A stretch of DNA of 64,000 bases, from NCBI GenBank assembly GCA_964400595.1, contig CAYNUT010000005.1, forward strand, positions 547 to 64,546, read 5' to 3'. Positions 15,704 to 55,447 of this stretch are shown here, piece after piece (the stretch's first letter is position 1; each line of letters opens with the position of its first letter). This stretch comes from an uncultured Neobacillus sp. (GTDB taxonomy: Bacteria; Bacillota; Bacilli; Bacillales; Cytobacillaceae). A program made the position numbers and the translations under genes. The notes beneath the pieces were generated by a model, which was given only the letters and a program-made list of their open reading frames with translations, ran no database searches and had not been told where the DNA came from.

Positions 15704-15721
15704 AAATTGGTCCCCCCTTTT

Positions 15722-16313: not shown

Positions 16314-17060
16314 TTAAGATTTTGCATGTTCTTCTGTCTTTTCCATATATTTATTTAGTGGGAACATTAACGTCTTGATTTGTCTTGCAAACAGATTGAC
16401 AAAACCCCTTTGATTTTCATAGATGAGATTGCCTGCCTGTTTTACGGCATTGATATATTGCATCCTGCCTTTTTTCCGCAGTTCAATATATTGATTTATG
16501 ACTTCAAGATACTTGTTCATGACTTGATAGTTTGAAATGGCTTGACAAGGCTTGCTTAGGAGCGTCATGGTTCTCTGTTGAATTTGGTCAATCTGCGAGT
16601 TGATTTCTTCGTAGGACCGGATTGGGAAGAAGTGCTGCAGGGTGGTTGTCGACATTAAAAGTTCCTCCCGGGCAGTTCTCTCCCACTCAGCAAGCTCCTT
16701 GTTAAACTGCGCGGCAATGGCCTTCAGGTTTCCTTGATTCCTTTGGACACTTTCGGCAAAATTCTTCGAAGCATTTAAAAATACCTCATCACGATAATCA
16801 GATCGTTTTGCCCATTCGTCAATTTCACTAAATGCATGGCGCCAAAGCATGTCTAAGCTTGAAATCTGTTCCTCATTATCCACATTTTCAGCGATGGCTT
16901 CTTCTTCCGGTTTTACCTTAAGAACATGCTCTTCTAGGTCTTTTTTAACGGTTCCAGCCTTCTGTTTTTCTTCCACTGCTGCGGTGGTTTCTTCCTCCGC
17001 TTTCTTTCTCCTTGGCTTTGATTCCTTCACTACTTCTTTTTCATTCTCTTTTTCTGCCAT
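16314..17060 (-). CDS. Second PhaP-like helical protein, copy B1
   Basis: LDMLW...SYEEINSQIDQIQ resembles PhaP; paralog of 45536..46156. Confidence 0.6.
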   Translation of the reverse strand: MAEKENEKEVVKESKPRRKKAEEETTAAVEEKQKAGTVKKDLEEHVLKVKPEEEAIAENVDNEEQISSLDMLWRHAFSEIDEWAKRSDYRDEVFLNASKNFAESVQRNQGNLKAIAAQFNKELAEWERTAREELLMSTTTLQHFFPIRSYEEINSQIDQIQQRTMTLLSKPCQAISNYQVMNKYLEVINQYIELRKKGRMQYINAVKQAGNLIYENQRGFVNLFARQIKTLMFPLNKYMEKTEEHAKS

Positions 17061-17169
17061 CTTGATCCGCATCCTTTATAAAAATTTAAAAAACTTGAAA
17101 ACTATTTTTATGTTAGTAGAATCATGCAGATAATTCAGTATTACAAAGGCTGTCTCATTCAATGATTAT

Positions 17170-18801
17170 TTACACTTGGACTTTTTCTTCCTCTTTTCGC
17201 AGCATCCTTCTCAATAATTTGCCGACTGCTGATTTAGGTAGTTCATCTAGTATTTCAATTTCTTTAGGCACTTTATAAGGAGCCATATTAAGCTTTACAA
17301 AATCAATCAGTTCATTAGTTGAAACAATCGCACCTGGCTTTAATTTAACAAATGCCTTAACTGTTTCCCCCCGGTACTCATCAGGAACCCCGATAACAAT
17401 GGCTTCCTCAACCGCTTCATGCTGGTATAATACTTCTTCAATTTCACGAGGGTAAACATTGTAGCCGCTGGCGATAATGATATCTTTCTTGCGATCTAGT
17501 ATATAGAAGTAACCATCTTCATCCATTTTTGCAATATCACCCGTAAAGAGCCATCCGTCCCTCAAAACCATATCTGTATCACCCGGCCGTTTCCAATATC
17601 CCTTCATAACTTGAGGACCGCGCAGAATTAATTCACCTGCTTCCCCGACAGGCACATTCGCAAACCCATCTTCTGTTTCTCTGACTATTCTAGCCTCTGT
17701 CCCAGGTAAAGGAATACCGACACTTCCTAATTTGCGAGGGAGAAATGGTGGTGTTGAAATGGCTGATGGTGCTGTTTCCGAAAGCCCGTATCCGTCTGCT
17801 AATCTTACACCGACTCTTTTCTCAAACTTTTTAGCCTGTTCAACAGGAAGCGGTGCACCACCGCTGGATAAGTAAAAAATATCGCCGATATTACTTTCTT
17901 CTAAATGCGGATGACTATTTAATGCAAAAATCATGGTTGGTACTGCCGTGAGCTGGAATGGTTTCTCCCGTTTGATTAACTCCAATACCTCATTTACATC
18001 AAATCGGGGCAAAATCAGCTGGTTACATCCAATTCTAATGGCCGAAAGCGCATTACATGACAGTCCATAAACATGAAACATAGGCAAAACACTGACAATT
18101 TTGAAGTTCTCCGGCTTTTCATCAACAGCATTATAGGTGAAATCACAAACCTGAATAATATTGGCCAAAAGATTATAATGTGTAAGCATGACTCCCTTGG
18201 AAACCCCTGTTGTTCCACCGGTATACTGTAGCAGTGCGACATCTTCCATTATGTCGATTGGAATTTCCGGGATAATATTATCATGGGTAAGAAAGTCTTC
18301 GAAATAAAGATCGCCTTCAGCGAGCTCCGCTCGATTGCCGCCAAAACCAACTACAATGACTTTTTTCAACGATGTTTTTGCCTGTACCTGTTTTACTCTA
18401 GGGTATAAGGCTTCAAAAACAACCATGTATTCTGATTCAGAATCATTAAGAACATATTCAATTTCTCTTTCCACATACATCGGATTGACTTGTACAGCGA
18501 TACCGCCTAAACGAAATGATGCGAATAAACTAAATATGTAATGCGGGGAATTAGGAAGCATGATGGCGATCCGATCACCCTTTTTAAATCCAATCCGATA
18601 TAACGATGCGGCGAGCCATTCCGAAACCATTCTTGTTTCCCTATAGCTCCATGATCTGCCGTAAAAGGTGAGAGCAGGTTTTTCATTATGGATGTTTGCT
18701 GCCTGCCTTAATAGGTCAAACAGAGATTCGTACTCAATCGAAATGTTTTCACTAATCCTCGAATCATAAAACTTTAACCATGGTTTCTTCTGATAATCCA
18801 A
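17170..18801 (-). CDS. Long-chain-fatty-acid-CoA ligase-type acyl-CoA synthetase, paralog 1
   Basis: QYTGGTTGVSKG, GYGLSE, TGD, SGYNVYPREIEE, LPKSAVGK. Confidence 0.93.
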   Translation of the reverse strand: MDYQKKPWLKFYDSRISENISIEYESLFDLLRQAANIHNEKPALTFYGRSWSYRETRMVSEWLAASLYRIGFKKGDRIAIMLPNSPHYIFSLFASFRLGGIAVQVNPMYVEREIEYVLNDSESEYMVVFEALYPRVKQVQAKTSLKKVIVVGFGGNRAELAEGDLYFEDFLTHDNIIPEIPIDIMEDVALLQYTGGTTGVSKGVMLTHYNLLANIIQVCDFTYNAVDEKPENFKIVSVLPMFHVYGLSCNALSAIRIGCNQLILPRFDVNEVLELIKREKPFQLTAVPTMIFALNSHPHLEESNIGDIFYLSSGGAPLPVEQAKKFEKRVGVRLADGYGLSETAPSAISTPPFLPRKLGSVGIPLPGTEARIVRETEDGFANVPVGEAGELILRGPQVMKGYWKRPGDTDMVLRDGWLFTGDIAKMDEDGYFYILDRKKDIIIASGYNVYPREIEEVLYQHEAVEEAIVIGVPDEYRGETVKAFVKLKPGAIVSTNELIDFVKLNMAPYKVPKEIEILDELPKSAVGKLLRRMLRKEEEKVQV

Positions 18802-39249: not shown

Positions 39250-39855
39250 TTATTTAAACCAGCCTTTTTCTTTGGATTGTGTAATGGCCTCGATGCGGTT
39301 TTTGACTTCGAGTTTATCGAGAATGATGGAGATGTAGTTACGGACGGTTCCGGTTTTGATGCTGAGTTCTTCGGCGATTTCTTTTGTGTTTTTCCCGTCT
39401 GCAACAAGCTCCAATACTTTTTTTTCCCGATCCGTCAGCGGATTTTCCTCCCCGTACAGATCATCCATTAACTCAGGAGCATAAACTCTTCTACCAGCCA
39501 TGACACTTCTGATGGAACTAGCCAACTCTTCACTTGGGCTGTCTTTCAATAAATAGCCGCTTACACCTGCCTTCAGCGCCCTCTGAAAATAACCCGTCCG
39601 AGCGAACGTCGTTAGAATAATCACCTTACAGCCAAGTCCTTTTAGTTCTTCTGCTGCTTCAAGACCGCTTTTTCCGGGCATTTCAATATCCATGATACAA
39701 ACATCAGGATTAAATTTCCGGACCATCGCCACTGCTTCCTCGCCATTTGCCGCCTTACCGACCACTTGCATATCCTCTTCCAGGTTAAGCAGTGAACCAA
39801 AGGCGCCCAAAAGCATTTTCTGGTCTTCAGCGATCACGATATTAATCATTCTCAT
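39250..39855 (-). CDS. desR: NarL-family response regulator DesR
   Basis: IAEDQKMLLGA, TTFARTGY, LuxR-type HTH; follows desK. Confidence 0.9.
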   Translation of the reverse strand: MRMINIVIAEDQKMLLGAFGSLLNLEEDMQVVGKAANGEEAVAMVRKFNPDVCIMDIEMPGKSGLEAAEELKGLGCKVIILTTFARTGYFQRALKAGVSGYLLKDSPSEELASSIRSVMAGRRVYAPELMDDLYGEENPLTDREKKVLELVADGKNTKEIAEELSIKTGTVRNYISIILDKLEVKNRIEAITQSKEKGWFK

Positions 39856-40985
39856 CCCTCCTTATCCAACCCCGGCTTTACATCATTCGGCACCTTGATC
39901 AACAATGTCGTTCCTTCCTTTGTTTCAAGCTTCATGCTGCCGTTAATAAACTCCAGCCTCTCTTTCATGCCAATAAGGCCGTGGCCTTTTGCCAAGCGTC
40001 CTTCATCACCATTAAACGCTCCATCATCTCGGATAGTCAGCACCGTTTCCAAATTAGTTTGTCCGATCGAAATAAAGCAATTTCGAGCCCCACTATGTTT
40101 AACGACATTGTTCACTGCCTCTTTTAAACACATGCTTAAAATATTCTCAATCAGTGAAGAAACATTCGTCAGGGTGAATTCCCCTTCATATACTACGCTG
40201 ATTTGCGCTGCTTTTAGCATCTCTTTTACACGAAGAATTTCATCCTTCAGCCGAATGCCCCGCATCGAGGAAACCATTTTTCTTACCTCACTTAAAGCTG
40301 TCCGGGCAGTTTGCTGTACATCTTTCAATTCATTACGTGCCTGTTCAGGATCTTTTGTAATCAACCTTCTTGCTAAATCCGTTTTCAGACCTATCAGTGA
40401 AAGTTTTTGTCCGAGTGTATCATGTAGATCGCGGGCAATCCGCTGCCTCTCCTCAAGTTTAACCAATTCAGCAATCCGCTTGTTGGCATCCTCAAGCTTT
40501 TCCTCCAGCTGCCCTCTTTCCTTTCGATTATAAATACTGAACGGAAGCAAAATGACGCTGATCCAAATGATAATGACAAATGGCAATTGTTTTAAAAATA
40601 ATTCCTCCTGCATCACGATGCTATAGTTGATAGAGGCGGACGTGCTGATTAAATGAATAAAATACAACGTAAGAAATGCTGCTCGATCCTTAATATTGCC
40701 AATAAAGTAGGCAAGAAAAAAGGCGAAATAAACATAGCTGAACAGGCTTGTCGCCGTAATAGAAATGCCAATCAAAATTAGCGTCCATAAATATACCAGC
40801 CAGCCTTTTGAAATAAAAGCGATTCGGTAGAGAATGAAAAAGGTTAACGTAAGCAAGATCCCCACAACGATTTGAATCGTCGAGGGGGATTGAAAAATAA
40901 AGTAAAACGGTAATATACAAAGAACAGTCCAAATATACGGGGCAATTCCATTATTTTTTTGAAATGTGAAATACCTTTTTATCAT
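39852..40985 (-). CDS. desK: Membrane histidine kinase DesK
   Basis: About five TM segments, ERQRIARDLHDTLGQKLS, EAVNNVVKHS. Confidence 0.9.
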   Translation of the reverse strand: MIKRYFTFQKNNGIAPYIWTVLCILPFYFIFQSPSTIQIVVGILLTLTFFILYRIAFISKGWLVYLWTLILIGISITATSLFSYVYFAFFLAYFIGNIKDRAAFLTLYFIHLISTSASINYSIVMQEELFLKQLPFVIIIWISVILLPFSIYNRKERGQLEEKLEDANKRIAELVKLEERQRIARDLHDTLGQKLSLIGLKTDLARRLITKDPEQARNELKDVQQTARTALSEVRKMVSSMRGIRLKDEILRVKEMLKAAQISVVYEGEFTLTNVSSLIENILSMCLKEAVNNVVKHSGARNCFISIGQTNLETVLTIRDDGAFNGDEGRLAKGHGLIGMKERLEFINGSMKLETKEGTTLLIKVPNDVKPGLDKEG

Positions 40986-41026
40986 AACGGAGCCCCTTCA
41001 TTCCTAAAATCCTTTATCTTTTTATT

Positions 41027-42052
41027 TTAACGAAAACTGCAGTTTTTTTCCCTTATTTTAGATAAAAATCTGGCTTCTTTAAACCCGACAAACTTTTTCT
41101 CATGCTCATCCCACAAATGAAATTTTAGTGAGGATATGCTTGTCTTAAGCGTGATGGTAGGCACATTTTGTAAAGGAAGTGTCTGCTTATGCACCTCTTC
41201 CAATTTATAATTGGGTACTCTCGGGCTCAAATGATGAACATGGTGATAACCGATATTGCCGGTAAGCCATTGCAGCACTTTTGGCAACTTGTAATAGGAG
41301 CTCCCTTCCACGGCTGCCTTCACATATTCCCACTCTTTGTCGCCCTCAAAATAAGAATCTTCAAAGGTGTGCTGCACATAAAAGAGCCAGATGCCTGCAG
41401 AACCCGACAAGAAAAAGATTGGCCCCTCAACCATGAGAAATGACTCCCAGCCTATGGCCCAGCAAAGAGCGGCAATCACAGCAGCAATTCCAATGTTTAT
41501 AAGATAGGTGTTAAACCGCTCCCTCAGCCTCGCCCCTTTTCTGTTAAAGCGGTTTTTAAAAAGAAAAATGTAAATCGGGCCAAGCACAAACATCACAAAT
41601 GGATGGCGGTACAAGCGATATTGCATCTTTTTCATGCTGCTTGCCGACACATATTCTTCGACCGTCAGCATCCAAATATCCCCTGTTCCCCGTTTATCCA
41701 AATTACTGCTGGTTGCGTGATGAACAGAATGTTCATGCTGCCACCTGCTGTATGGGAACATGGTTATAAAACCGCAAATGGTGCCGAGGATTTTGTTTGC
41801 CGTCCGATTTCTAAAAAAAGAATGATGACAGCAGTCGTGAAATATAATAAAGATCCGCACCAAAAAGCCTGAAGCAGCCACACATAAGGCTATAGTCAGA
41901 AAATATGATATAGACAGACTTTTATAACTCAGAAACCATAGTAAAAAAAATGGGACCAGCGTATTGAGCAGCTGCTGGACACTGTTTTTTGCATTCGGCT
42001 GCTCAAATGGAGCAATCTGCTTTCGTAAATTCTTTGCTTTTTCGTGAACCAT
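41027..42052 (-). CDS. des: Fatty acid desaturase
   Basis: His boxes HDCCH, HSVHH, HHVHH. Confidence 0.93.
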   Translation of the reverse strand: MVHEKAKNLRKQIAPFEQPNAKNSVQQLLNTLVPFFLLWFLSYKSLSISYFLTIALCVAASGFLVRIFIIFHDCCHHSFFRNRTANKILGTICGFITMFPYSRWQHEHSVHHATSSNLDKRGTGDIWMLTVEEYVSASSMKKMQYRLYRHPFVMFVLGPIYIFLFKNRFNRKGARLRERFNTYLINIGIAAVIAALCWAIGWESFLMVEGPIFFLSGSAGIWLFYVQHTFEDSYFEGDKEWEYVKAAVEGSSYYKLPKVLQWLTGNIGYHHVHHLSPRVPNYKLEEVHKQTLPLQNVPTITLKTSISSLKFHLWDEHEKKFVGFKEARFLSKIREKNCSFR

Positions 42053-42232: not shown

Positions 42233-42787
42233 TTATTTTGTGCGAACAAGGACTTTTGCGCTTTCTTCGAGGCGGCCGACTAATTTTTTGTTAGTTTCGC
42301 GGGCTGCTTTTACGTAACCGTCAGTTACGTTTTGCCATCCGTTTCGACGCTCTCTTGAATAGTTGATATAGTTTTCACTGCTTTCAACAAGGTTTTCTTC
42401 AAATCGCTGAATCAGGTCAAGACCTGCTGCAACAGGAGCCATCGCTAACTGTTCAAGACGTGTTGATACTTCATCAAATTGTTCTTTCAATTCAGGTTTA
42501 ACAGCTTCTCCTTCTTCACGATCTTTTGCAAGTCTGTCTGCAACCGTTTTTGTTAATTCACTGCCTGTTTGTCTATAGGTTTGGAAAAGGCCGGCAAGCG
42601 ATCCTCTAAATTCTTGATTGAAATTTACCATTTCTTTTACGCCATTCAGGAAAGCATCTTCTCTTCTTTCACGGCGCTTTCTAGCCTGTACTAACGATTG
42701 TTCATATTGATTCCAAAAAGTATCTACCAACATATCCACTACTCCTTCTTGGACAGCTTGTCCACTTTTCTTTGCTGCAGTGCTCAT
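42233..42787 (-). CDS. phaP: PhaP-like phasin, copy A2
   Basis: LVDTFWNQYEQS...RREDAFLN matches 12550..13200. Confidence 0.65.
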   Translation of the reverse strand: MSTAAKKSGQAVQEGVVDMLVDTFWNQYEQSLVQARKRRERREDAFLNGVKEMVNFNQEFRGSLAGLFQTYRQTGSELTKTVADRLAKDREEGEAVKPELKEQFDEVSTRLEQLAMAPVAAGLDLIQRFEENLVESSENYINYSRERRNGWQNVTDGYVKAARETNKKLVGRLEESAKVLVRTK

Positions 42788-42859
42788 TTTTGTTCCTCCT
42801 TTTTTTCATGCTCCCAGTTCAGAGCCTTTGTTTTTATTGTATGTACTTCGTAGCTAGTC

Positions 42860-42898
42860 TATATATGTAATTTACACCTATATGTAATAATATGTCAA
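42860..42898 (-). promoter_or_regulatory. SigA-type promoter with putative PhaQ operator, copy 2
   Basis: TTGACA-N18-TAAATT with TAGGTGTAAATTACATATA. Confidence 0.65.
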
Positions 42899-42998
42899 TA
42901 CCAATTATATAATAAAATAACCAGAATTTTATAAATGTTTATACCTTATAAATATTGGAAACATAAAATACTATAAATAACCATTGGAGGTATGTAAA

Positions 42999-43781
42999 TT
43001 GAGTGAACACTTCAATATTTGTTATGGAATTCCTTATTTACGCCTAGGTGCTGGTGAACCATTAGTTTTTATTCACGGCCTAGGAGAAGTGAAAGAAGGC
43101 TGGGCAAACCAGTTTGAATTTGCCGATCAGTATGACCTGATTATTCCTGATTTACGCGGGCACGGAGAGTATGAATCACCACCTGGTGAAATATCCATTC
43201 ATAATTTTGCGAAAGACGTCATTACCCTTCTAAAAGGGCTGGAAATTGAAAGCGCACACATTTGCGGGTTGTCAATGGGCGGGATGGTAGCCCAGGAAAT
43301 TTATCGTCAGGCTCCAGAAATGTGCCTTTCCTTAATGCTCGTCAGTACCTTTCACTTTGCGCCAAAGCGCCTAGGGAAACTTTATCTTAAGCTCCGGCAA
43401 ACTACTGTAGAAAATAAGTTACCTGATGTTCTGAGAGAAAAAGCGGCAAAACTTTGCCTTTATTCATGGTCCAGGGAAAATTTCGAAAGCTTTTATCAAT
43501 TTTACCGGCCGAATAGCGAATTTTATTTCCAATCAATGGAAGCGTGTCTTAAAGTCAACAACTTAACATTACTCCCTCAAATTAAGGTGCCAACCCTCAT
43601 CATTGGCGGGCAATATGATACGGTTATTCCTGTCTGGGTTCAATTATTGATGCATAAACAAATCCGTCACTCAGAGTTTGTTATTTTTAAAAATACAGGT
43701 CATATCGCAAAGTTAGAGGCAAAGGAAGAATTCAATGAAGTTCTCCGCAATTTTTTAAACAAACACAAAAGGGCAAGTTAG
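42999..43781 (+). CDS. Alpha/beta hydrolase, paralog 2
   Basis: GEPLVFIHGLGEVKEGW, GLSMGG, QYD, TGHIAKLE; TTG start after GGAGG. Confidence 0.85.
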   Translation: MSEHFNICYGIPYLRLGAGEPLVFIHGLGEVKEGWANQFEFADQYDLIIPDLRGHGEYESPPGEISIHNFAKDVITLLKGLEIESAHICGLSMGGMVAQEIYRQAPEMCLSLMLVSTFHFAPKRLGKLYLKLRQTTVENKLPDVLREKAAKLCLYSWSRENFESFYQFYRPNSEFYFQSMEACLKVNNLTLLPQIKVPTLIIGGQYDTVIPVWVQLLMHKQIRHSEFVIFKNTGHIAKLEAKEEFNEVLRNFLNKHKRAS

Positions 43782-43861
43782 GAGGAAGGAAAAATCCTTC
43801 CTCTTCCCAATTGCCATCATTAAATATATATTACTTATTACAAACTTTATTACACAAATCC

Positions 43862-44929
43862 CTAAAGTGGATTGGAACGGCTGGAAGCCCATTGGTCCAC
43901 AATTTTCGCAAATATACCAGATAAGGCAAGGCTGACATGTCCAGCTTCCACAGTGATATAAGTTTTATCCTCACTTGAAGCCAAGTCCATTATTGGCTTG
44001 CTCTGCTCTTCTAAAATAAGGTTGTCTTTTGAACCTGAAACAACGAACAAATTAGCTTCAATATTTTTTAAATCAGCCTTTTTATTCCCAAGCATAAATT
44101 CTCCTTTAACCAGTTTGTTCTCTTTAAAAAGATCATTGGCTAATTGTTTATATGCCTCACCTGCAAATGGAACCTGGTCAAGTGTCCATTTATTCATCCG
44201 GCGCCATTTATCAACATACCGATGGTCGTGCGCGCGATTTAATAGCATTGTATAATTTGTAAAATAAATTGGTGCTCCGATTGCCCTGAACATACCTTCC
44301 ACAAGCATCGGCGGGACTACACCATATACATCGATTAAGTGGTCAATGATAAAATCGCCGCTTCTCATGCCTTCTGCCCATTTATCCGGTCCGATAAACG
44401 GCTCGAAATCTATCGGAACAGTCGCGACAATTAAATTTTTAATCGGCTCTTCGGCAATCGATGCGTAGATGGACGCAATTGTGCCGCCTAAGCAATATCC
44501 GACCAAAGTAATTTCTTCAGCTCCCGAATGGCGGATTGCCCGTTTTACTGCTGTCCGTAAATATTTCTCAATATAAGTATCAAGCCCCATCTTCTTGTCT
44601 TCATAGCCTGGGGAACCCCAATCCAAAAGATACACCTCATAGCCCATGTTTGTTAGTCCTTCAATCACACTGGCGTTCGGGGCAATATCTAGAATGTACG
44701 GTTTATTAAATAATGAGTAAACGAAAAATAAGGGAATTTCAAATCTCCTCTGTTTTGCGGGATAATGCCATAGAACCGATTTATTTTTTCTCCAAACTTC
44801 ATTTCTCGGAGTATGGCCAACCTTCGGCTCTGGCCCGCTTAAAGCCTTAAACAAATGCGTCCAGCGGTTCTTCTCTTTTTCAATATCCAAATCAGGAATT
44901 AAATTCACTAAAGGTGTTTCAGCCGCCAC
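43862..44929 (-). CDS. phaC: Class III/IV PHA synthase catalytic subunit, copy 2
   Basis: TPRNEVWRKNK, NKPYILD, YLLDWG, GYCLGG, KD, AGHVS. Confidence 0.85.
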   Translation of the reverse strand: MAAETPLVNLIPDLDIEKEKNRWTHLFKALSGPEPKVGHTPRNEVWRKNKSVLWHYPAKQRRFEIPLFFVYSLFNKPYILDIAPNASVIEGLTNMGYEVYLLDWGSPGYEDKKMGLDTYIEKYLRTAVKRAIRHSGAEEITLVGYCLGGTIASIYASIAEEPIKNLIVATVPIDFEPFIGPDKWAEGMRSGDFIIDHLIDVYGVVPPMLVEGMFRAIGAPIYFTNYTMLLNRAHDHRYVDKWRRMNKWTLDQVPFAGEAYKQLANDLFKENKLVKGEFMLGNKKADLKNIEANLFVVSGSKDNLILEEQSKPIMDLASSEDKTYITVEAGHVSLALSGIFAKIVDQWASSRSNPL

Positions 44930-44950
44930 GGTTCTAACCTCCACCTTCTA

Positions 44951-45517
44951 TTATTTCGCAGGGCTGGATCCGGCCAATACCGGTTCAGCCTCAATGTTAT
45001 TTTTAATAAGGCCTTTAATTTCGTCCATTTCTTCTTTGAAATTGCTTAATTTCAACAGCTCAAATTTCATTTCCTGAAGCTCTGCATGTAAATCCTTTGA
45101 ATCTGCAAGCTCTTTTTTCGTTTTTACAAGTTCAGTTTTCAGTTGTTTTGTCAGCTTCATTATCTCTTTCGATACTTCCACAACACTTTCAATCTCTTTG
45201 CTTTGTGACGTAACAGAATCCCGCAGCTCCCAAATCTGCTCTTCAAGAGCTTCGATTTTTTCTTCCGCCTGAATGGTTAAGGACGCTACGTTCGTCACAT
45301 CAGATTTTGTTGGCATGTTTAAGACGCTGGCAAGTGCCTCTTGATTTTTTTTAAATACCTCTAGATACCGAGAATGGATTTCCGTCCCAATATTGGACAT
45401 CTTGACAAATTCCTTATTGTTCGTCCAAAGATAAATGAAATCATTAATCTGTTTTTCCCACAATAAACTCAGCTTGTGAAAAGATTCATACGGATCATAT
45501 GGTTTTTTGCCTGACAT
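44951..45517 (-). CDS. phaR: PhaR synthase subunit, copy 2
   Basis: YDPY...NMPTKSDVTNVASLTIQAEEKIEALEEQ. Confidence 0.82.
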   Translation of the reverse strand: MSGKKPYDPYESFHKLSLLWEKQINDFIYLWTNNKEFVKMSNIGTEIHSRYLEVFKKNQEALASVLNMPTKSDVTNVASLTIQAEEKIEALEEQIWELRDSVTSQSKEIESVVEVSKEIMKLTKQLKTELVKTKKELADSKDLHAELQEMKFELLKLSNFKEEMDEIKGLIKNNIEAEPVLAGSSPAK

Positions 45518-45535
45518 TCGTTACACCCCTATTGA

Positions 45536-46156
45536 TTATGATTTCGTTTGCTCTGTAACGCTTTTCATATATTTTTGAAACGGCATCATAGCAGATTTTA
45601 CTTGTTTGGTAAAAAGATTCATTAAGACCTTTTGATTTTCATACAACACATTGCTTGTTTTCTTCACACTCTCAATATATTTTTCCCTGGCTTTTTTTCT
45701 ATAAGCAATATATTGCTCCACTGTTTCCAAATACTTATCAAGTGCCTGGCCGCCTGTTAAGGAGCGAACCGGTGTCAATAATAGATTGGTAGTTTTCTTT
45801 TGAATATCATCCACTACTTGATTGATTTCCTCATAAGACTTGATAGGGAATAAGTGCTGAAATGCCGTGGTCGTCATAAGAAGTTCTTCTCTGGCCGTTT
45901 TCTCCCATTCTTTAAGCTCCCTGCTGAATTGCTCAGATACCTGCTTAATATTTTCTTGATTCCGTTTCACCCGATCAGCATAGTTTTTAACAGATTCCAA
46001 GAAAAGCTCATCGCGTTTGTTATACCGTTCTACCCACCTGTCCAACTCATCAAATCCAAGCTTCCAAACCATTTCCAAACTAGATAACTGCTCATTAGCA
46101 TCACCGGCTGCTGCTTCTGTAGTTTCATTTGTTAATACTTCTTCCTTTTCTGCCAT
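45536..46156 (-). CDS. Second PhaP-like helical protein, copy B2
   Basis: WEKTAREELLMTTT...FPIKSYEEIN nearly identical to the block in 16314..17060. Confidence 0.6.
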   Translation of the reverse strand: MAEKEEVLTNETTEAAAGDANEQLSSLEMVWKLGFDELDRWVERYNKRDELFLESVKNYADRVKRNQENIKQVSEQFSRELKEWEKTAREELLMTTTAFQHLFPIKSYEEINQVVDDIQKKTTNLLLTPVRSLTGGQALDKYLETVEQYIAYRKKAREKYIESVKKTSNVLYENQKVLMNLFTKQVKSAMMPFQKYMKSVTEQTKS

Positions 46157-46159
46157 TTC

Positions 46160-46621
46160 CTACTCCCCCTCCTTAGCGGATTCCATTTCAAAAAATTGCT
46201 GTAAATCCGCTAATTCTTTTTCCAAAGTTTTTATTTTGCTATCACGGATGTCTTTCATTTCAGCTTTGTAAACAGAGCAACATTCTTTCCATAGTTTCCG
46301 CACTTCTATTAATCGTAAGAGATTCTCGCGCTGAATTTTGCTGATTTCATAAATCGTTTCATCAAGGAAATCTAACCGGTCCTCTAAATCTACTAGTCTT
46401 ACAGAAATCTCGGCATATTCATCCTTATTCGCAAAATCTAATCGCTTTAACCACCTGGTTGTTAACCTTCTGTGAATTCTTGCCCATTTTAAATGCGCAT
46501 TCATAGCCCGTCCAAATGCTTTTGTAAAGGTCCGGCAATTGGTCCAGGCATGTATGCTTTTATTCATTTCCGCTTCAAGTTTTTTGTAGTTTGCATCTGA
46601 ATCATGATGTTTGGATTCCAT
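46160..46621 (-). CDS. Divergent PhaR-like coiled-coil protein
   Basis: LDFANKDEYAEISVRLVDLEDRLDFLDE parallels the PhaR PTKxDVAxV...EEKIDxLEE motif. Confidence 0.55.
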   Translation of the reverse strand: MESKHHDSDANYKKLEAEMNKSIHAWTNCRTFTKAFGRAMNAHLKWARIHRRLTTRWLKRLDFANKDEYAEISVRLVDLEDRLDFLDETIYEISKIQRENLLRLIEVRKLWKECCSVYKAEMKDIRDSKIKTLEKELADLQQFFEMESAKEGE

Positions 46622-46635
46622 ATAAATCCCCTTCA

Positions 46636-46649
46636 ACCAACCGGTCGGT
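46636..46649. promoter_or_regulatory. Palindrome ACCAACCGGTCGGT, candidate TetR-type operator
   Basis: 12 of 14 positions palindromic, just upstream of the module-2 operon RBS. Confidence 0.5.
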
Positions 46650-46789
46650 ATGTTTACCTAATCATAGTAAATTCAAGCCCTTTAGTCAATTTGGAATTCG
46701 TGAAATTTCTAAAATTTTAGTGAATTTTTTCCAGATTTAGAGTCCAATTGATAGGATTTTTTATTACTATAGAGCAGGTACTCAGTTTT

Positions 46790-47569
46790 TTATTGAACCC
46801 CTGCAGTAGTTCCACCGTCAACTACAAGCACATGTCCAAAAACATAATCTGAAGCGGCTGAGGCTAGGAATAATGCCGGCCCCTTCATATCGTCATTGGA
46901 ACCAAAACGGCCAGCAGGTGTCCGTTCTAGAATTTTTTCTCCGGAATAATCCAAGATCGTTTTTGCCATTTTTGTCGGAAAAAATCCAGGTGCAATCGCA
47001 TTAACATGAACATTGTATGGAGCAAGTTTAACAGCTAAATCCTTTGTAAAGGCAATAACTGCACCTTTGCTTGCCGTATAGCCAATCGCATCCATGACTA
47101 ATGGATCCTGACCGCCCATGCCGGCGATGGAAGCAATGTTAATTATTTTTCCTGATCGCTGTTCTTTCATTATTTTTCCGACTGCCTGCGAAAATAAGAA
47201 GACAGCCTTCAAGTTAATATCCATGACCTTATCCCATTTATCCGCTGGCATTTCTAGAGCAGGGGCTCCCCAGCTTGTCCCGCTGTTGTTTACTAAAATA
47301 TCAATTTGGCCAAATTCCTTCAGTGGTCCATCGACCACATTCTGAATGTCGAGAGGATTGGACACATCACATTTAAAGGCTATGGCCCGAACACCTCTTT
47401 CCTTAAGTGCATCGCAGAATTGCTGGCAGGCCTCAACATTTCTTGAACAAACGACCACATTAGCTCCCGCCTCGGCATAAGAAATCGCAATTTGCTGTCC
47501 TAATCCCCTGCCGCCGCCTGTGACAATGGCTGTTTTCCCTTTTAAACTGAATAAATCTTGAATATTCAT
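46790..47569 (-). CDS. Classical SDR oxidoreductase
   Basis: TGGGRGLG, NNSG, YTASK, IAPGFFPT. Confidence 0.9.
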   Translation of the reverse strand: MNIQDLFSLKGKTAIVTGGGRGLGQQIAISYAEAGANVVVCSRNVEACQQFCDALKERGVRAIAFKCDVSNPLDIQNVVDGPLKEFGQIDILVNNSGTSWGAPALEMPADKWDKVMDINLKAVFLFSQAVGKIMKEQRSGKIINIASIAGMGGQDPLVMDAIGYTASKGAVIAFTKDLAVKLAPYNVHVNAIAPGFFPTKMAKTILDYSGEKILERTPAGRFGSNDDMKGPALFLASAASDYVFGHVLVVDGGTTAGVQ

Positions 47570-47588
47570 CTGAATATCTCCTTTTCTA

Positions 47589-49223
47589 TTAAGCTCTCAC
47601 TTTTAATTTCTCTTGATCTCTTAATACTCTTCTAAGTAATTTTCCGACAGATGACTTTGGCAGCTCAGGAAGAATTTCCACTTCCTTTGGAGCCTTATAT
47701 GGAGCAAGGTTCTCTTTACCGAATTGTTTAATTTCCTCTTCTGTAATCGAAAAACCGGTCTTTAGCTTAACGTAGACCTTAACGGTTTCCCCGCGGTAAG
47801 GGTCTGGAACTCCGACGGCAAGCGCTTCCTCGACTGCTTCATGCTGGTAGAGCACTTCCTCAATCTCGCTGGGATAAACGTTGTAGCCGCTTGCGATAAT
47901 CATATCCTTTTTCCGATCAACAATATAAAAATAACCGTCTTCATCCATTCTTGCGATATCGCCCGTAAACAGCCAGCCATCTTTTAAAACAGCCGCTGTT
48001 TCTTCTGGACGGTTCCAGTAGCCTTTCATGACCTGCGGCCCTTTTACAATTAATTCCCCTGCCTCACCCACAGGTGCATCGACATATCCATCATCTGTCT
48101 CAAGAACAATTTTGACGATCGTACTTTGAACAGGAATTCCAATACTACCGTATTTTCTTGGGACAAATGGGGGATTAAATATAACCGTTGGAGATGCCTC
48201 AGACAGACCATAACCATCAAGGAGCATAGCACCTGTTCTTCTTTCGAACACCTTTGCAGCCTCCACCGGCAGCGGTGCGCCGCCGCAGCTTATGTAATAA
48301 AGGTCATCAAACCCGCACTCTTCGAGCCCTGTCTGGCTGTTTAAGGCGAAAAACATCGTCGGAACACCAGACAGTTGGAATGGTTTTTCGCGCTTAACCG
48401 TTTCCATCACTTCCTGCGGATCAAAGCGCGGCAGGATAATTTGATTGGCTCCTTCCCTAATTCCGCAAAGGGCCACACTTGAGAGCCCGTATACATGGAA
48501 AAATGGCAAAACACTAATCATTTTAAAATCTTCCGGTTTGTTATTACATGCTTTGTAGGCAAAATCACAAACCATATTGAAATTTGATAAAAGATTCGTA
48601 TGTGTCAGCATGACTCCCTTGGAGAGACCAGTGGTTCCACCTGTATATTGCAAGAGGGCGACATCCTTATCACGGTCAATCTCTACTTCTGGGAGGTTAA
48701 CCTCAACATGAAGAAATTCATCGAAATACTGATCCCCATCAGCAAGTTCAAACCTTTCGCCACCAAGGTTTACAACGAGCAATTTTTTTAAGGAAGTACT
48801 TGGCTGCACCTTTTTCACTCTTGGATAGAGCGCATCGAGAACAACCATATATTCAGAGCCTGAATCATTTAATACATGCTCGATTTCTCGTTCCACATAC
48901 ATTGGATTAACTTGGACAGCAATTCCACCTAAGCGAAAAACCGCGAATAGTGTGAAAATGTATTGCGGGGAATTGGGAAGAATAATGGCTAATCGATCAC
49001 CTTTAGTAAATCCAGCATTATGTAGAGCTGAGGCCAACCGATCTGTCATTGCTTTTGCAGCATTAAAACTAATTACATTGCCATAAAAGGTAAAGGCAGG
49101 CTTGTCACCGAACCGCCTAACAGCGTCTTGTAAAAAATCGTACAAGGAAGGATGTTCCATACTTACATTCTCATCAATTCTCGGGTCATAAAACTTCAAC
49201 CATGGCTTTTGCTGGTAAACCAT
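47589..49223 (-). CDS. Acyl-CoA synthetase (LCFA-CoA ligase type), paralog 2
   Basis: QYTGGTTGLSKG, GYGLSE, LPKSSVGK; start at MVYQQKPW. Confidence 0.93.
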   Translation of the reverse strand: MVYQQKPWLKFYDPRIDENVSMEHPSLYDFLQDAVRRFGDKPAFTFYGNVISFNAAKAMTDRLASALHNAGFTKGDRLAIILPNSPQYIFTLFAVFRLGGIAVQVNPMYVEREIEHVLNDSGSEYMVVLDALYPRVKKVQPSTSLKKLLVVNLGGERFELADGDQYFDEFLHVEVNLPEVEIDRDKDVALLQYTGGTTGLSKGVMLTHTNLLSNFNMVCDFAYKACNNKPEDFKMISVLPFFHVYGLSSVALCGIREGANQIILPRFDPQEVMETVKREKPFQLSGVPTMFFALNSQTGLEECGFDDLYYISCGGAPLPVEAAKVFERRTGAMLLDGYGLSEASPTVIFNPPFVPRKYGSIGIPVQSTIVKIVLETDDGYVDAPVGEAGELIVKGPQVMKGYWNRPEETAAVLKDGWLFTGDIARMDEDGYFYIVDRKKDMIIASGYNVYPSEIEEVLYQHEAVEEALAVGVPDPYRGETVKVYVKLKTGFSITEEEIKQFGKENLAPYKAPKEVEILPELPKSSVGKLLRRVLRDQEKLKVRA

Positions 49224-49362
49224 AAACTTACGATGCCTCCTCAGGATCTTTGTTATCAATATTCCTCCCGTTTAATCCCACTGCTGTAAATTCTTCGAAG
49301 TCATCATCTATTACATCAATTAGAATATTAATATAATTATGATTATTGTGGTAAAAATCCAA

Positions 49363-49404
49363 TTTGTAAACCTTACTTTCTCGACACAATTCCACAATTT
49401 ACCT
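49363..49404 (-). promoter_or_regulatory. Conserved upstream block of the acyl-CoA ligases (copy 2)
   Basis: TTTGTAAAC-N9-TCGACACAATTCCAC. Confidence 0.6.
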
Positions 49405-49773: not shown

Positions 49774-50577
49774 ATGCCAGTTACTAAGGCCAATGAAATT
49801 GATCTGTACTATGAGGTTCACGGTGAGGGAGAACCGCTGCTTCTGATTATGGGGCTGTCACTTAGCTCAAAATCCTGGTTCAGAACGGTACCAGCCCTCA
49901 GTGAGAACTATAAAGTTATTATTTTCGACAACCGTGGAACAGGTTTCAGCAGTAAACCGAATACGCCATATTCAATCGAGATGATGGCAAATGATGCCCT
50001 GGCTGTTATGGATGCAGCCGAAGTAGAATCAGCCCATGTCTATGGAATCTCCATGGGCGGGATGATTGCTCAACGATTAGCCATCCAATATCCCGAGAGA
50101 ATACGCTCCCTTATCCTTGGCTGCACAACTTCCGGCGGTGCTAATCATGTCCAGCCAGGGGCAGATGTTTCGATGCTCATGCTATCGAGAGCCTCTTCCA
50201 CGGCAACACCAGAGGAAATGGCCTGGGCTACGGCGCCAATCCTTTACAGTCAATCATTTCTTGAAAACCAGCGGGATTTGGTAGCTGAAGATATTAAGAG
50301 GCGGATAGAACAGCCGATTCTCCCTTATGCATATATGCTTCAGCTTCAGGCCTGTTTGGCTCATGATTCTTATAAGGAGCTTGACCAAATCAAAGTGCCA
50401 GCCTTCGTCATACATGGGGATGAAGATAAACTTGTCCCCTTCGAAAATGGTGAAACCCTAGCAGAGAAACTGCCAAATGCTGAATTTTTAACTGTTAAAG
50501 GTGCCGGCCATATCTATGTGACAGAGGCAAATGACCTAGTGAATCAAAAAGTGCTGGAATTTCTAAAAAAACATTAA
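49774..50577 (+). CDS. Alpha/beta hydrolase (enol-lactonase-like)
   Basis: GEGEPLLLIMGL, DNRGTG, GISMGG, HGDED, AGH. Confidence 0.88.
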   Translation: MPVTKANEIDLYYEVHGEGEPLLLIMGLSLSSKSWFRTVPALSENYKVIIFDNRGTGFSSKPNTPYSIEMMANDALAVMDAAEVESAHVYGISMGGMIAQRLAIQYPERIRSLILGCTTSGGANHVQPGADVSMLMLSRASSTATPEEMAWATAPILYSQSFLENQRDLVAEDIKRRIEQPILPYAYMLQLQACLAHDSYKELDQIKVPAFVIHGDEDKLVPFENGETLAEKLPNAEFLTVKGAGHIYVTEANDLVNQKVLEFLKKH

Positions 50578-50715: not shown

Positions 50716-51498
50716 ATGGGACAGGTTTCGATTAGTTGCTCCGGAATTCCTTATTTGCGTATGGGCTCAGGTGAACCTTTAGTTTTTATCCATGGTCTCG
50801 GTGAAGTGAAAGAGGGCTGGAACAATCAGTTTGAATTTGCTGATCAATATGACTTGATTATTCCGGATCTAAGGGGACATGGTGAACATATTTCATCAGA
50901 TAGAATCTCCATTCCGGCCTTCGCAAGTGATGTCATCGGATTATTGAATGAGCTTAATATTGAAAACGCTCACATATGTGGTTTGTCCATGGGAGGCATG
51001 GTCGCTCAAGAAATTTATCGTCAGGCTCCTGAAATGTGTAAATCATTAATGCTGGTTAGCACCTTCCACTTTGTTCCAAAACAGCTGGCAAAGCTAATAT
51101 TAAATTATCGTAAAGCCATATCCTTGTCCAACCGTCCAAAAATTTCAAAAGAAGCTGCCTCACGGATTGCGCTCAATTCATGGAATCGAAAAAACATCGA
51201 AGAATTCTATAAATTTTATAAACCAAATAATAGCGAAATTTTCCTTAAATCAGTCCAAGCATGTCTAAATGTCAATAATCAAAACCTTTTGCCAAAAATA
51301 AAAGTTCCTACTCTTATTGTCGGCGGCCAATATGATTCCATTATTCCTGTTTGGGTACAGCTCTGGATGCATAAAAAAATTCCCAACTCAGAGTTTGTTA
51401 TCGTCAGGAACACGGGGCATATTGCTAAATTAGAAGCAAAAGATTCCTTTAACAGAATCCTACGCAACTTTTTGAAAAAACACAGCATCGCAAGTTAA
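50716..51498 (+). CDS. Alpha/beta hydrolase, paralog 3
   Basis: GEPLVFIHGLGEVKEGW, GLSMGG, QYD, TGHIAKLE. Confidence 0.85.
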   Translation: MGQVSISCSGIPYLRMGSGEPLVFIHGLGEVKEGWNNQFEFADQYDLIIPDLRGHGEHISSDRISIPAFASDVIGLLNELNIENAHICGLSMGGMVAQEIYRQAPEMCKSLMLVSTFHFVPKQLAKLILNYRKAISLSNRPKISKEAASRIALNSWNRKNIEEFYKFYKPNNSEIFLKSVQACLNVNNQNLLPKIKVPTLIVGGQYDSIIPVWVQLWMHKKIPNSEFVIVRNTGHIAKLEAKDSFNRILRNFLKKHSIAS

Positions 51499-51669: not shown

Positions 51670-53310
51670 TTACGCTTTCATTTTAGCAAGCTCTATATCA
51701 CGCAATTCCCTCCTGAGCAATTTTCCAACAGATGATTTAGGAAGCTCAGCTAAGATTTCTACTTCTTTCGGAGCCTTATACGGTGCAAGATTGTCGTAGG
51801 CAAACTGCTTAATTTCATCAACTGATAGTGTAAAGCCTCCTTTTAGTTTGATAAATGCCTTAACCGTTTCCCCTCGGTAAGAATCCGGGACGCCAATGAC
51901 AATAGCCTCTTCGACCCCCTCTAACTTATAGAGAACCTCCTCGACTTCACGAGGATAAACATTGTATCCGCTCGCAATAATCATATCTTTTTTCCGGTCA
52001 AGGATATAGAAGAAGCCGTCTTCATCCATTTTGGCAATATCGCCGGTAAATAACCAGCCATCCTTAATTACTTCCTCTGTATCCTTAGGACGGTTCCAAT
52101 ATCCCTGCATAATCTGGGGGCCCATTGCAATCAATTCCCCGGCTTCGCCGACAGGAACATCGACATATTCTCCGTCTTCTGTCTCGCGGACAATTCTGAT
52201 CACCGTGCTTTGCACCGGAATGCCAATACTTCCATATTTTCCAGGGACAAATGGAGGGTTGAAGGCGAGTGTTGGTGCTGCTTCTGAAAGGCCATAGCCA
52301 TCATTAAGCTTCGCGCCGGTTAATTTTTCAAACACCTTGGCTGTTTCCACTGGAAGCGGCGCCCCTCCGCTGCCGATATACCACAATTTATCAAATTCAC
52401 ATTCCTTTAATAATTCCGGCTGGCTGATTAAAGCAAAGTACATAGTTGGTACTCCGGCAAAGATTAATGGCTTCTCCCGTTTAATAGTTTCAATTACTTC
52501 TTTCACATCAAACCGAGGCAAAATAATTTGATTGGCACCTTCTCTAATTCCGCATAGAGCGACACTTGATAGACCATAAACATGGAACATTGGCAGAACA
52601 GTTATCATTTTTAAAGATTCCGGCACATCATCCCATGTATTAAAAAGAAAATCACAAACCTGGTTGAAATTCGCTAAAAGATTATAGTGTGTAAGCATGA
52701 CACCTTTTGGAACACCCGTTGTTCCGCCGGTGTATTGCAGCACGGCAATATCTTGGTGAGGATCAATTTCAACAGCCGGGACTTCCCCGCCGCTTGCTAG
52801 AACTTCTTCAAAATAATAATCACCTTCTGCGAGTTTTTGTTTTTCACCGCCGAAGCTGACAACAGTTACATTTTTCAAGGATGTGTCCGACTTAACTTTA
52901 ACAATTTTTGGATAGAAAGCATCAAGGGCAATCATGAATTTAGCTCCAGAATCCTCTAAAACAAACTCGATTTCCCTTTCCACATACATTGGATTCACCT
53001 GAACAACAATTCCACCCAGGCGAAAAACAGCAAATAACGAAAAAACGTATTGAGGGCAGTTTGGAAGCATAATGGCGACACGATCACCTTTTTTAAAGCC
53101 TTCTCTATGTAATGCTGCTGCGAGCCTGTCGACCAGCACCTTTGTTTCAAAAAAGCTAAAGACCCTCTCATAAAAGGTGAAGGCTGGTTTTTCGCCAAAA
53201 CGATTGACAGCGCTTTCCAAGAAATCATAAAGCGACTCATGCTTTACACTCACATTTTCATCGACTCGCGGATCATACCATTTCAACCAAGGCTTTTGCT
53301 GATAAACCAT
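51670..53310 (-). CDS. Acyl-CoA synthetase (LCFA-CoA ligase type), paralog 3
   Basis: QYTGGTTGVPKG, GYGLSE, LPKSSVGK. Confidence 0.93.
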   Translation of the reverse strand: MVYQQKPWLKWYDPRVDENVSVKHESLYDFLESAVNRFGEKPAFTFYERVFSFFETKVLVDRLAAALHREGFKKGDRVAIMLPNCPQYVFSLFAVFRLGGIVVQVNPMYVEREIEFVLEDSGAKFMIALDAFYPKIVKVKSDTSLKNVTVVSFGGEKQKLAEGDYYFEEVLASGGEVPAVEIDPHQDIAVLQYTGGTTGVPKGVMLTHYNLLANFNQVCDFLFNTWDDVPESLKMITVLPMFHVYGLSSVALCGIREGANQIILPRFDVKEVIETIKREKPLIFAGVPTMYFALISQPELLKECEFDKLWYIGSGGAPLPVETAKVFEKLTGAKLNDGYGLSEAAPTLAFNPPFVPGKYGSIGIPVQSTVIRIVRETEDGEYVDVPVGEAGELIAMGPQIMQGYWNRPKDTEEVIKDGWLFTGDIAKMDEDGFFYILDRKKDMIIASGYNVYPREVEEVLYKLEGVEEAIVIGVPDSYRGETVKAFIKLKGGFTLSVDEIKQFAYDNLAPYKAPKEVEILAELPKSSVGKLLRRELRDIELAKMKA

Positions 53311-53617: not shown

Positions 53618-55300
53618 TCAAAATCTTCCTGATTTAAAAATAGAGTACAGCAGCCATAGAAACATTATCGTGGCGATACCAAATCCGATTTCGACAATAG
53701 GAATTTGGGCTAGAAGAAAAGAGGTCTGCCCTGTTAAGGATGATCCAATAATAACTCCCGCCATTAAAATACATAACGATAACAGTGTAATGCTAAAAGA
53801 CAACCGGTTACTGATGCGATTTAATTTCTTAAAAAGCGATTCGAACTCCGGTGTCGTAATATCAATTTTCATCTTCCCTTTTTTCATCACGGAGGTAAAA
53901 TCTTTAACTGTCTGCGGAAGGTCTTGAATGATATCTTCATATTCATTAAATTGATTCCATACTTTTTCTGCCATGTTTATGGGATTTAAGCGTTCTTTCA
54001 CCAATTTCCGTCCAAACGGCTCAGCAATTTTAATAATACTTAAATCAGGATCAAGCTTTTGGATAACCCCTTCTAATGTCAGAAGTGATTTTGCAAGAAT
54101 CGTTAAATCTGTAGGAATCTTGATTCTATGCCGATAGGCAACAGCAAATAACTCATTCACGACTTTGCCAAGGCTCATCTCACTAAATGGAACATTGGAA
54201 TATTTCTCCCTGAGAACATCAACATCCGACCTTAACTTACCACGGTGGATAGTGTCAGGCACCAAGCCCATTCTCATTAATGTTCGAACTATATCATCTG
54301 TATTTTGGTTCATCATCGCAATCACTAACGAGGCTACATGATCTCTCATGTCCGGGCTCAGGCGGCCGACAATGCCAAAATCCATAAAGGCTATGACTTC
54401 TCCAGGCAGGGCCAAAATATTCCCTGGATGCGGATCACCGTGAAAAAAACCTTCGATTAAAATCTGATGAAATATAGCATTTACAACCGTTTCTCCAAGT
54501 GATTTACTATCATATCCAGCTTGATGAAGCTTGTCGATTTCGATTAATTTTGTTCCTTCAATAAATTCCATTGTTAAAACCTTCGCTGTTGTGTATTCCC
54601 AATATATCTTTGGAATCAGTACCTTTGATTCGTTTATAAACTGGCGGGCAATTCGTTCTGCATTGCGCCCTTCATTTTCATAATCCAATTCTTCCCGGAT
54701 AGAATTCACTAATTCTTCAACAATATCACGAATTTGATATCTCTCAGCCCACTCAAGCCTTGCCTCTGCTAATCTTGATAAATCCTGAAGAATTTCTAAA
54801 TCCGTTTCTACAACCTGCCTGATATTGGGCCGCTGCACCTTTACGGCCACTCTTTCCCCTGTTAGCAGCACGGCAGCATGAACCTGTCCGATAGAAGCTG
54901 CTGCAATAGGTATGGGGCAAAATTCGGCGAAAGAGTGATCAAGCGATTCATCCAATTCTTGTTCAAGAATCCTCTTTACATCTTCAAATGGAAAAAGAGA
55001 GACACTATCCTGAAGCTTTACTAACTCATGAATGATTTCAGCAGGGATGATATCCGGCCTGGTGCTGGCAATCTGTCCCATTTTCACAAAGGTAGGCCCA
55101 AGTTCCTCCAAAAACATTCTGATTCGTTCCCCGGTTGTCCTGGTACTTAATGTTTCATTCTCTTCGACAAAAACCCGCTTAGGGACGGATAACAGGTCTA
55201 GCAGCCCTAATTCTTTCATGATAAAGCCGAAGCCGTATTTAGTGAACGCATAAACAATGTCCCTGTAGCGCTGCAGGTGGCGGACTCTTTTTTTAATCAT
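53618..55300 (-). CDS. ABC1/UbiB/AarF-family atypical kinase
   Basis: LGPTFVKMGQ, AAASIGQVH, VAVKVQRP, FFHGDPHPGN, DFG, two C-terminal TM segments. Confidence 0.93.
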   Translation of the reverse strand: MIKKRVRHLQRYRDIVYAFTKYGFGFIMKELGLLDLLSVPKRVFVEENETLSTRTTGERIRMFLEELGPTFVKMGQIASTRPDIIPAEIIHELVKLQDSVSLFPFEDVKRILEQELDESLDHSFAEFCPIPIAAASIGQVHAAVLLTGERVAVKVQRPNIRQVVETDLEILQDLSRLAEARLEWAERYQIRDIVEELVNSIREELDYENEGRNAERIARQFINESKVLIPKIYWEYTTAKVLTMEFIEGTKLIEIDKLHQAGYDSKSLGETVVNAIFHQILIEGFFHGDPHPGNILALPGEVIAFMDFGIVGRLSPDMRDHVASLVIAMMNQNTDDIVRTLMRMGLVPDTIHRGKLRSDVDVLREKYSNVPFSEMSLGKVVNELFAVAYRHRIKIPTDLTILAKSLLTLEGVIQKLDPDLSIIKIAEPFGRKLVKERLNPINMAEKVWNQFNEYEDIIQDLPQTVKDFTSVMKKGKMKIDITTPEFESLFKKLNRISNRLSFSITLLSLCILMAGVIIGSSLTGQTSFLLAQIPIVEIGFGIATIMFLWLLYSIFKSGRF

Positions 55301-55447
55301 ATATATCACTCCTGTCTGGAGTCCTTTTCTACAACATCTCACTCTTTGCAGCTTTTTTCAAGTCTGGTTATGCGCCGTCTTAAAATGTTCATTTTTAAAA
55401 AAATCAATGAGCGGTCCTTTTTGCGGACCGCCCATTTAAGATTGAAA

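Follow-up and report, generated by a model that had tools for sequence, protein, structure and literature searches.

Two gene modules for polyhydroxyalkanoate (PHA) synthesis, A and B, lie in the window analyzed here, a 64,000-nucleotide stretch of contig CAYNUT010000005.1 from an uncultured Neobacillus sp. (GCA_964400595.1). On balance, though only just, we judge it probable that module B (42233–49223) is a second, old copy of a module built around a noncanonical PHA synthase (PhaC) and that it encodes a polyester storage cycle working on fatty or hydroxy acids independently of the reductase PhaB. The cycle itself is a prediction. The synthase belongs to a widespread lineage that is apparently an undescribed class IV variant independent of PhaB. 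We found no description of it, or of multicopy phaC in Neobacillus, in the open-access literature, where class IV is treated, in the accessible text of the papers concerned, as the PhaRC type of Bacillus megaterium and B. cereus (PMC13398554; PMC9864133; PMC12455824; 10.1101/693432).

The Synthase and Its Lineage

PhaC-B, the divergent, short catalytic subunit of module B, is encoded on the minus strand at 43862–44929 and has 355 amino acids from a likely GTG start. It contains the Cys-Asp-His triad and the conserved tryptophan, with C151 as the lipase-box cysteine in the motif GYCLGG; Cys151, Trp253, Asp307, and His336 (numbered on the 360-residue open reading frame, ORF) were invariant in all 172 distinct sequences gathered. 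The structure was predicted with a pLDDT of 91, and the 14 top-ranking Foldseek matches shown for this model are all PhaC (E = 1e-22 to 5e-18), the next fold following at 5e-13. PhaC-B has the complete triad and the predicted PhaC fold of a PHA synthase-type enzyme, which would polymerize hydroxyacyl-coenzyme A (CoA).

TIGR01836 is the best-matching model for the module PhaC, and both PhaC-B and its module A counterpart, PhaC-A, fall below its cut-off of 365 bits (288 and 282 bits, respectively). The two are 41–42% identical to PhaC of Priestia (Bacillus) megaterium; among named proteins, those closest to PhaC-B come from Neobacillus, with identities of up to 87%. In a tree of 44 sequences, rooted on the class III PhaC of Haloferax (15 of 59 rows were omitted as long branches or near-duplicates), A and B fall with their relatives into a single clade (support, 100/100; stem, 0.64 substitutions per site). 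They stand apart from canonical PhaC, whose own group is weakly supported (68/97), and many positions are fixed differently between the two. Two other PhaC trees were run in quick mode, one of them on a subset of the B (18 of 61) and canonical (16 of 39) sequences. When a clade member was used as the query, named matches came from Cytobacillus, Peribacillus, Robertmurraya, Heyndrickxia, Metabacillus, and others. In the order as a whole, matches at E ≤ 1e-90 were obtained in 34 of 301 genomes; none of these was placed on a tree, and the weakest may be canonical. A 700-residue protein, P0122, contains two PhaC-like stretches.

The enzyme does not belong to class II: the module PhaC scores 48.5 bits against TIGR01839, for which the cut-off is 855, and PhaC-B has only 355 residues. 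A short PhaC next to a phaR gene is the mark of class IV, and a phaR-like gene lies upstream in 53 of 54 loci. The separate clade, the score below the TIGR01836 cut-off, and the lack of a phaR-phaB-phaC operon nevertheless place PhaC-B outside canonical class IV.

Organization of Module B

Module B comprises eight ORFs, all open. phaP diverges from a hydrolase gene, which converges on phaC; in map order, phaC is followed by phaR, a phasin-like gene, a PhaR-like gene (R2), a short-chain dehydrogenase/reductase (SDR) gene, and a ligase gene. The hydrolase gene alone is on the plus strand. Purine-rich stretches resembling ribosome-binding sites precede the likely starts, and the intergenic gaps are short (3–21 bases across R2-phasin-phaR-phaC, 19 bases between the ligase and SDR genes). 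This architecture, with its intact frames and without phaQ or phaB, is as originally predicted. Gene frequencies below refer to 54 orthologous B loci with flanks of up to 9 kb, some of which end at contig ends; phaQ was found in none of them.

Four genes accompany phaC-B almost throughout. The phaR-like gene (44951–45517, minus strand; 53 loci) encodes a probable synthase partner subunit of 188 residues that is 31% identical to P. megaterium PhaR and matches TIGR02132 at E = 6e-10, below the cut-off. The second phasin-like protein (45536–46156, minus strand; 206 residues; 51 loci) is just under the cut-off of PF09602 (E = 4e-6). R2 (46160–46621, minus strand; 51 loci) had been proposed to be PhaR-like, and alignment with the PhaR profile confirms the homology (hhalign probability 98.9%, E = 3e-17); a PhaE-like lead is weak (atlas score 0.89). 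Two of the three loci that lack R2 are at contig ends. The fourth gene (42999–43781, plus strand; 53 loci) encodes an α/β hydrolase, a candidate PHA depolymerase or esterase.

The remaining genes are variable, with phaP present in 8, the SDR gene in 32, and the ligase gene in 33 of the 54 loci. PhaP (42233–42787, minus strand) is a Bacillus-type phasin of 184 residues that passes PF09602 with 113.5 bits. The SDR (46790–47569, minus strand) is of family PRK08213 (NF006070, 363 bits; cut-off 279) and is not PhaB, to which it is 34% identical; it is a candidate alternative oxoacyl-CoA reductase. There was no support for its being LvaD of levulinate catabolism, a protein linked to PRK07035, since the SDR passes PRK08213 and not PRK07035. 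The ligase (47589–49223, minus strand; PF00501 and PF13193) resembles long-chain-fatty-acid–CoA ligases and appears to form a module-specific subfamily: none of 10 Neobacillus genomes without modules A and B has a full-length close relative.

In the hydrolase, Ser97, Asp212, and His240 are invariant in all 23 sequences aligned. It shares the α/β fold and the Ser-Asp-His triad with the intracellular PhaZ of the Bacillus thuringiensis type (NF050089) but scores far lower, reaching 71 bits against a cut-off of 300 over the N-terminal part only, and is thus not a member of that family. Members of the hydrolase family were found in 90 of 250 genomes, of which 89 also have phaC, a count in which related genomes are not independent. 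No PhaZ above the NF050089 cut-off was found in this genome. The proposal that the hydrolase stands in for PhaZ is unsupported, as PhaZ is present in 52 of 76 genus genomes. Searches of solved structures turned up nothing close to the hydrolase (none at 1e-22), the ligase, or the SDR.

The span 42233–49223, which had been taken as the module, contains real genes and omits three more beyond its end: a further α/β hydrolase (49774–50577, plus strand), found in 35 of the 54 loci and also in full modules of other genera; a paralogue 70% identical to the B hydrolase (50716–51498, plus strand; 12 loci); and a third module-type ligase, 71% identical to that of module B (51670–53310, minus strand; 14 loci). 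A conserved putative promoter, TGTCGA, a spacer, and TTTACA-17-AATAAT, precedes the B ligase gene (49342–49386, minus strand). The same element, with TGTCGA upstream, lies before all three ligase genes of the window (the others upstream of 18801 and of 53310), and the TGTCGA-spacer-TTTACA pattern was seen in 45 of 56 ligase upstream regions. TGTCGA resembles the consensus of the Spo0A box.

Other neighbors are less constant. des with desK-desR (39250–42052) adjoins module B, desK lying inside the locus in 39 of 54 cases and des in only 4, and in 20 of 54 no more than 9 kb separates phaC-B from a UbiB/ABC1-family atypical kinase gene (53618–55342). A B-type module in a record titled Priestia megaterium S2 (L053) is nested among Neobacillus sequences, and the label may be wrong.

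History of the Duplicated Module

Module A (12550–18801, minus strand except for the hydrolase gene) contains phaP, phaQ, the hydrolase gene, phaC-A, phaR, a phasin-like gene, and a ligase gene. Its PhaQ passes TIGR02719 with 143 bits (cut-off 139.35). A and B proteins are 53.7% identical for PhaC, 56.8% for the hydrolase, 40.3% for PhaR, 51.1% for the phasin-like protein, 35.7% for PhaP, and 66.7% for the ligase. Synonymous sites are saturated between the modules (proportion of synonymous differences, pS, 0.70–0.86), which renders the ratio of nonsynonymous to synonymous substitution (dN/dS) uninformative for A against B. Among orthologues of PhaC-B, dN/dS is about 0.04, a rough estimate with dS near saturation, which bears out retention of module B under selection.

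The duplication had been described as old, and the saturation, the same A/B split in the PhaC, PhaR, and R2 trees (the latter two quick trees), and a topology test all support this. A tree that forces the Neobacillus A and B copies together was rejected (p-AU = 3e-5, for a hypothesis group named after earlier trees had been seen), and synthases of another genus, g19, group with the A copies (100/99). These results suggest that the split predates the genus or that one copy was transferred.

The view that module B gained R2 and the SDR did not hold. Genus g19 (L179, L184, and L185) has a single full module with ligase, SDR, R2, phasin, phaR, phaC, hydrolase, phaQ, and phaP genes. L086 and L182 branch outside A and B, and both carry R2 and phaQ, L086 also the SDR; one Neobacillus A module (L213) still holds R2. 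As other genera have R2, the SDR, and phaQ together in one full module, and some of these modules branch outside A and B, loss from A is indicated instead of gain by B. By this comparison R2 and the SDR are ancestral and the losses reciprocal: phaQ survived in A, where R2 and the SDR have mostly disappeared, and the reverse holds for B. Among 10 single-copy loci of the lineage that were inspected, mostly in other genera, a minimal SDR-phaR-phaC arrangement was seen in five, with an SDR of the PRK08213 type; it also occurs on a plasmid of Priestia filamentosa.

Two further gene groups accompany module A. adhE (19198–21801) lies directly upstream in most A loci read, even where phaC-A is lost, and might feed acyl-CoA from alcohols; a GerE/LuxR regulator with DUF6230-DUF6114 genes (9214–12394) is present in seven loci.

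Control by PhaQ

PhaQ represses its own promoter and phaP and senses polyhydroxybutyrate (PHB), according to the accessible part of one report (PMC9049629). The phaQ promoter/operator sequence is conserved from P. megaterium to module A, where the putative operator lies at 13633–13656. A putative element of the same type, TTGACA-18-TAAATT with a conserved box, precedes phaP-B (42860–42898, minus strand). When the 3.86 Mb genome was scored with a matrix derived from the regions upstream of phaQ in other genomes (26 regions), three sites were strong, with 38.6, 34.6, and 30.7 bits; they lie before phaQ-A, before phaP-B (the 34.6-bit site), and at a third pha locus on contig C87, where a degenerate site near 1749 points toward a divergent FabG-like gene. 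The next scores were 18.0 bits, on the other strand of the phaP-B site, and 13.9 bits. A generic promoter scan did no better than chance (37 against 30.6 ± 5.2).

Because the genome has no strong site beyond these three, a single PhaQ likely governs the three pha loci, and phaQ is single-copy in most phaQ-positive genomes of the genus. The conserved site before phaP-B suggests that module B belongs to the regulon of the PhaQ encoded in module A, which likely acts in trans on the retained operator to repress phaP-B; the shared element points to joint control of the loci. The putative operator persists in several B loci that lack phaP.

A Third Synthase and the Distribution of phaB

Searches with tblastn found three phaC genes in the genome. 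The third belongs to a canonical phaR-phaB-phaC locus without phaQ or phaP (C87:1898–4282, L006), and its PhaC passes TIGR01836 with 424 bits and is 66% identical to that of P. megaterium. Because of this locus, "phaB-less," as the modules had been called, is true of A and B but not of the genome.

In a sample of 250 genomes of the family, 171 have phaC and 53 have phaB, all 53 being among the 171, so that no phaB was found in 118 of 171 phaC-bearing genomes. These absences read as "not found," because the phaB searches score only the top candidates per genome. Within Neobacillus, phaC was detected in 64 and phaB in 26 of 71 genomes; a second query placed a PhaB orthologue (at least 77% identity) in 38 of 76, the others having FabG-level matches (43–48%) or none. 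Closed genomes in which no orthologue was found include G115, G122, G129, G167, G185, G194, and G208. None of the loci inspected had phaB beside a noncanonical phaC, and about half of the genus additionally keeps a canonical locus. Three phaB-less Neobacillus genomes (G179, G188, and G216) have a canonical-type phaC. In G156, a canonical-type phaR-phaC pair without phaB adjoins a carboxyltransferase gene (L219).

Retention of the Two Synthases

Duplication by itself is ordinary for the genus, as at least two phaC matches were found in 55 of 71 genomes. The original prediction went further and proposed that the two synthases differ in substrate range or form two types of granule in one cell, a specialization that we now consider unlikely. 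The two PhaC proteins are only 53.7% identical, their clades are both well supported, and both are under purifying selection. Each module has its own phasins, and the neighbors differ, with adhE upstream of A and the SDR and R2 in B. Among 52 other B-bearing genomes, phaQ is on the same contig in 46, at a distance of 9–46 kb (median 27 kb), and 38 retain both synthases, with a phaC beside phaQ. Whole lineages have nevertheless lost one synthase: 14 of the 52 have no intact phaC beside phaQ, and eight genomes carry module A without B (pairing was derived from match coordinates, and the query for A did not cover G152). Direct reading of five of the 14 showed that phaC-A alone is deleted in G156 and G170, where the A ligase, phasins, PhaR, hydrolase, and phaQ remain; G248 and G239 have lost more of A, and phaC-A of G204 is split. 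The persistence of A accessory genes after loss of phaC-A, the shared PhaQ-type operator, and the presence of phaP-B in only 8 of 54 loci also speak against specialization. The retention pattern argues against a strict division of labor between A and B, and the notion of two substrates and two granules is weakened accordingly.

Discussion

In the PhaB-independent cycle that we favor, the ligase would convert imported or released acids to CoA thioesters, and the SDR, in the place of PhaB, would reduce oxoacyl-CoA to hydroxyacyl-CoA. PhaC, with its PhaR-like partner or partners, would polymerize the hydroxyacyl-CoA, the two phasins would coat the granule, and the convergent hydrolase would free monomers for reactivation. 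The two synthases would overlap at least partly in function. Supply of hydroxyacyl-CoA by ligase and SDR and recycling by the hydrolase are proposed by likeness to the cycle of Pseudomonas putida, formed by PhaC1/PhaC2, PhaZ, and FadD1 in the available part of the source (PMC8764540). That system (phaC1-phaZ-phaC2, phasins, FadD1) likewise combines two synthases with a hydrolase, phasins, and an acyl-CoA ligase and operates without PhaB; the likeness is one of analogy, as the class II (medium-chain) enzymes are single-subunit.

One of the closest known systems is the phaP-phaQ/phaR-phaB-phaC locus of P. megaterium. It has the short PhaC, the upstream PhaR-like gene, and the PhaP_Bmeg phasin in common with the modules, and module A has a PhaQ 59% identical and the same phaQ promoter/operator. 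The modules differ in lacking phaB, in occurring in several copies per genome, in having a PhaC on a separate branch, and in adding a second phasin, a second PhaR-like gene, the hydrolase, the SDR, and the ligase. Class III PhaEC systems resemble them in the short PhaC, in TIGR01836 as best model, and in the weak PhaE-like lead for R2, and several phaC genes per genome occur in Halobacteria, as far as the accessible text reports (10.1101/693432). The module PhaC is, however, only 34% identical to that of Haloferax, is below the model cut-off, and has a PhaR-like partner. A link to the lactone copolymers of Aneurinibacillus was dropped; the accessible text of PMC7362256 is silent on phaC.

Several observations weigh against the PhaB-independent cycle. 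Within 9 kb of phaC-B, the ligase was found in only 33 and the SDR in only 32 of 54 loci; of the 10 single-copy loci, five lack the SDR and none has the ligase. The substrates of both enzymes are not readable from sequence. FabG and MaoC-family proteins, possible sources of 3-hydroxybutyryl-CoA, are encoded in all five phaB-less closed genomes tested, and many phaB-less genomes retain an ordinary short-chain PhaZ, an enzyme present in 52 of 76 genomes of the genus. Module remnants without phaC beside canonical synthases fit ordinary PHB granules: in G040, the remnant (L241) consists of phasin-like, phaR, hydrolase, phaQ, and phaP genes, and the synthase of the genome is canonical. Paralogues adjoin unrelated genes (alkyl sulfatase, major facilitator superfamily [MFS], alcohol/aldehyde dehydrogenases, and M20 peptidase), and a strain of Cytobacillus firmus was negative for phaC classes and for PHA on sugar medium in the accessible part of PMC12455824.

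A bolder version of the cycle is possible but doubtful. The lineage would then be an unrecognized subclass of PHA synthase, the sole kind found in most phaC-bearing genomes of the family sample. A holoenzyme with two PhaR proteins would convert ligase-activated acids to medium-chain or non-3-hydroxy (e.g., 4-hydroxy) polyesters, in a Pseudomonas-like cycle of a Gram-positive host whose paralogues are wired to different catabolic feeders. Lineage PhaC paralogues lie behind aldehyde/alcohol dehydrogenase, alkyl sulfatase, and MFS genes, or follow a sigma-54 regulator gene together with SDR, ligase, and MFS genes, with an M20 peptidase gene downstream (L196–L200 and L206–L211). Neighboring genes were rejected as 4-hydroxybutyrate CoA-transferases, the 423–442-residue products being MFS transporters and the 644-residue product an alkyl sulfatase. 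A β-oxidation-like cluster elsewhere (L229:1546–13953; G000 C1) encodes a 63% paralogue of the module SDR; its other genes are presumably for a ligase, a thiolase-like protein, a MaoC-like pair, an acyl-CoA dehydrogenase-like protein, and a 297-residue R2lox-like protein.

We give a rather small chance to the alternative that both modules make PHB or its copolymer with hydroxyvalerate (PHBV) from 3-hydroxybutyryl-CoA supplied in trans, by PhaB or else by FabG or a MaoC/PhaJ hydratase, with the ligase only recycling monomer and the copies differing in timing or dose. The genome does have phaB at C87, with the same operator there; the MaoC proteins of phaB-less closed genomes, the short-chain PhaZ of the genus, and the hydrolase homologue beside a canonical phaRBC (L222) agree with it, and class IV enzymes are said to prefer short-chain monomers in the accessible part of PMC9864133. 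Against this stand the long stem and the many positions fixed differently from canonical PhaC, the consistent loss of linked phaB, and the dedicated ligase subfamily; moreover, about half of the genus has the canonical locus too, which would then be a third redundant copy. That the divergent PhaC no longer serves as a storage polymerase but forms short oligoesters, or acts as a hydroxyacyl transferase by which fatty acids and alcohols are detoxified or parked, is very improbable: the PhaC scores (288 and 282 bits, where the C87 PhaC has 424), the catabolic neighbors of paralogues, and the C. firmus strain negative for all four phaC classes and, according to a table footnote, for PHA on sugar medium (PMC12455824, accessible part; the C. 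firmus protein among the lineage matches is from a different strain) would fit, but all catalytic residues are invariant, and the enzyme is conserved together with PhaR-like subunits, two phasins, and PhaQ, a repressor responsive to PHB.

The interest of module B lies in the lineage that is duplicated, rather than in duplication as such. Because NCBI names for its PhaC are mostly "alpha/beta fold hydrolase," the lineage is easily overlooked. If active, these enzymes would provide a large and so far unexploited set of synthases that come from hosts free of endotoxin and draw on another monomer route, and a single genome with two lineage copies and a canonical one would offer a direct three-way comparison.

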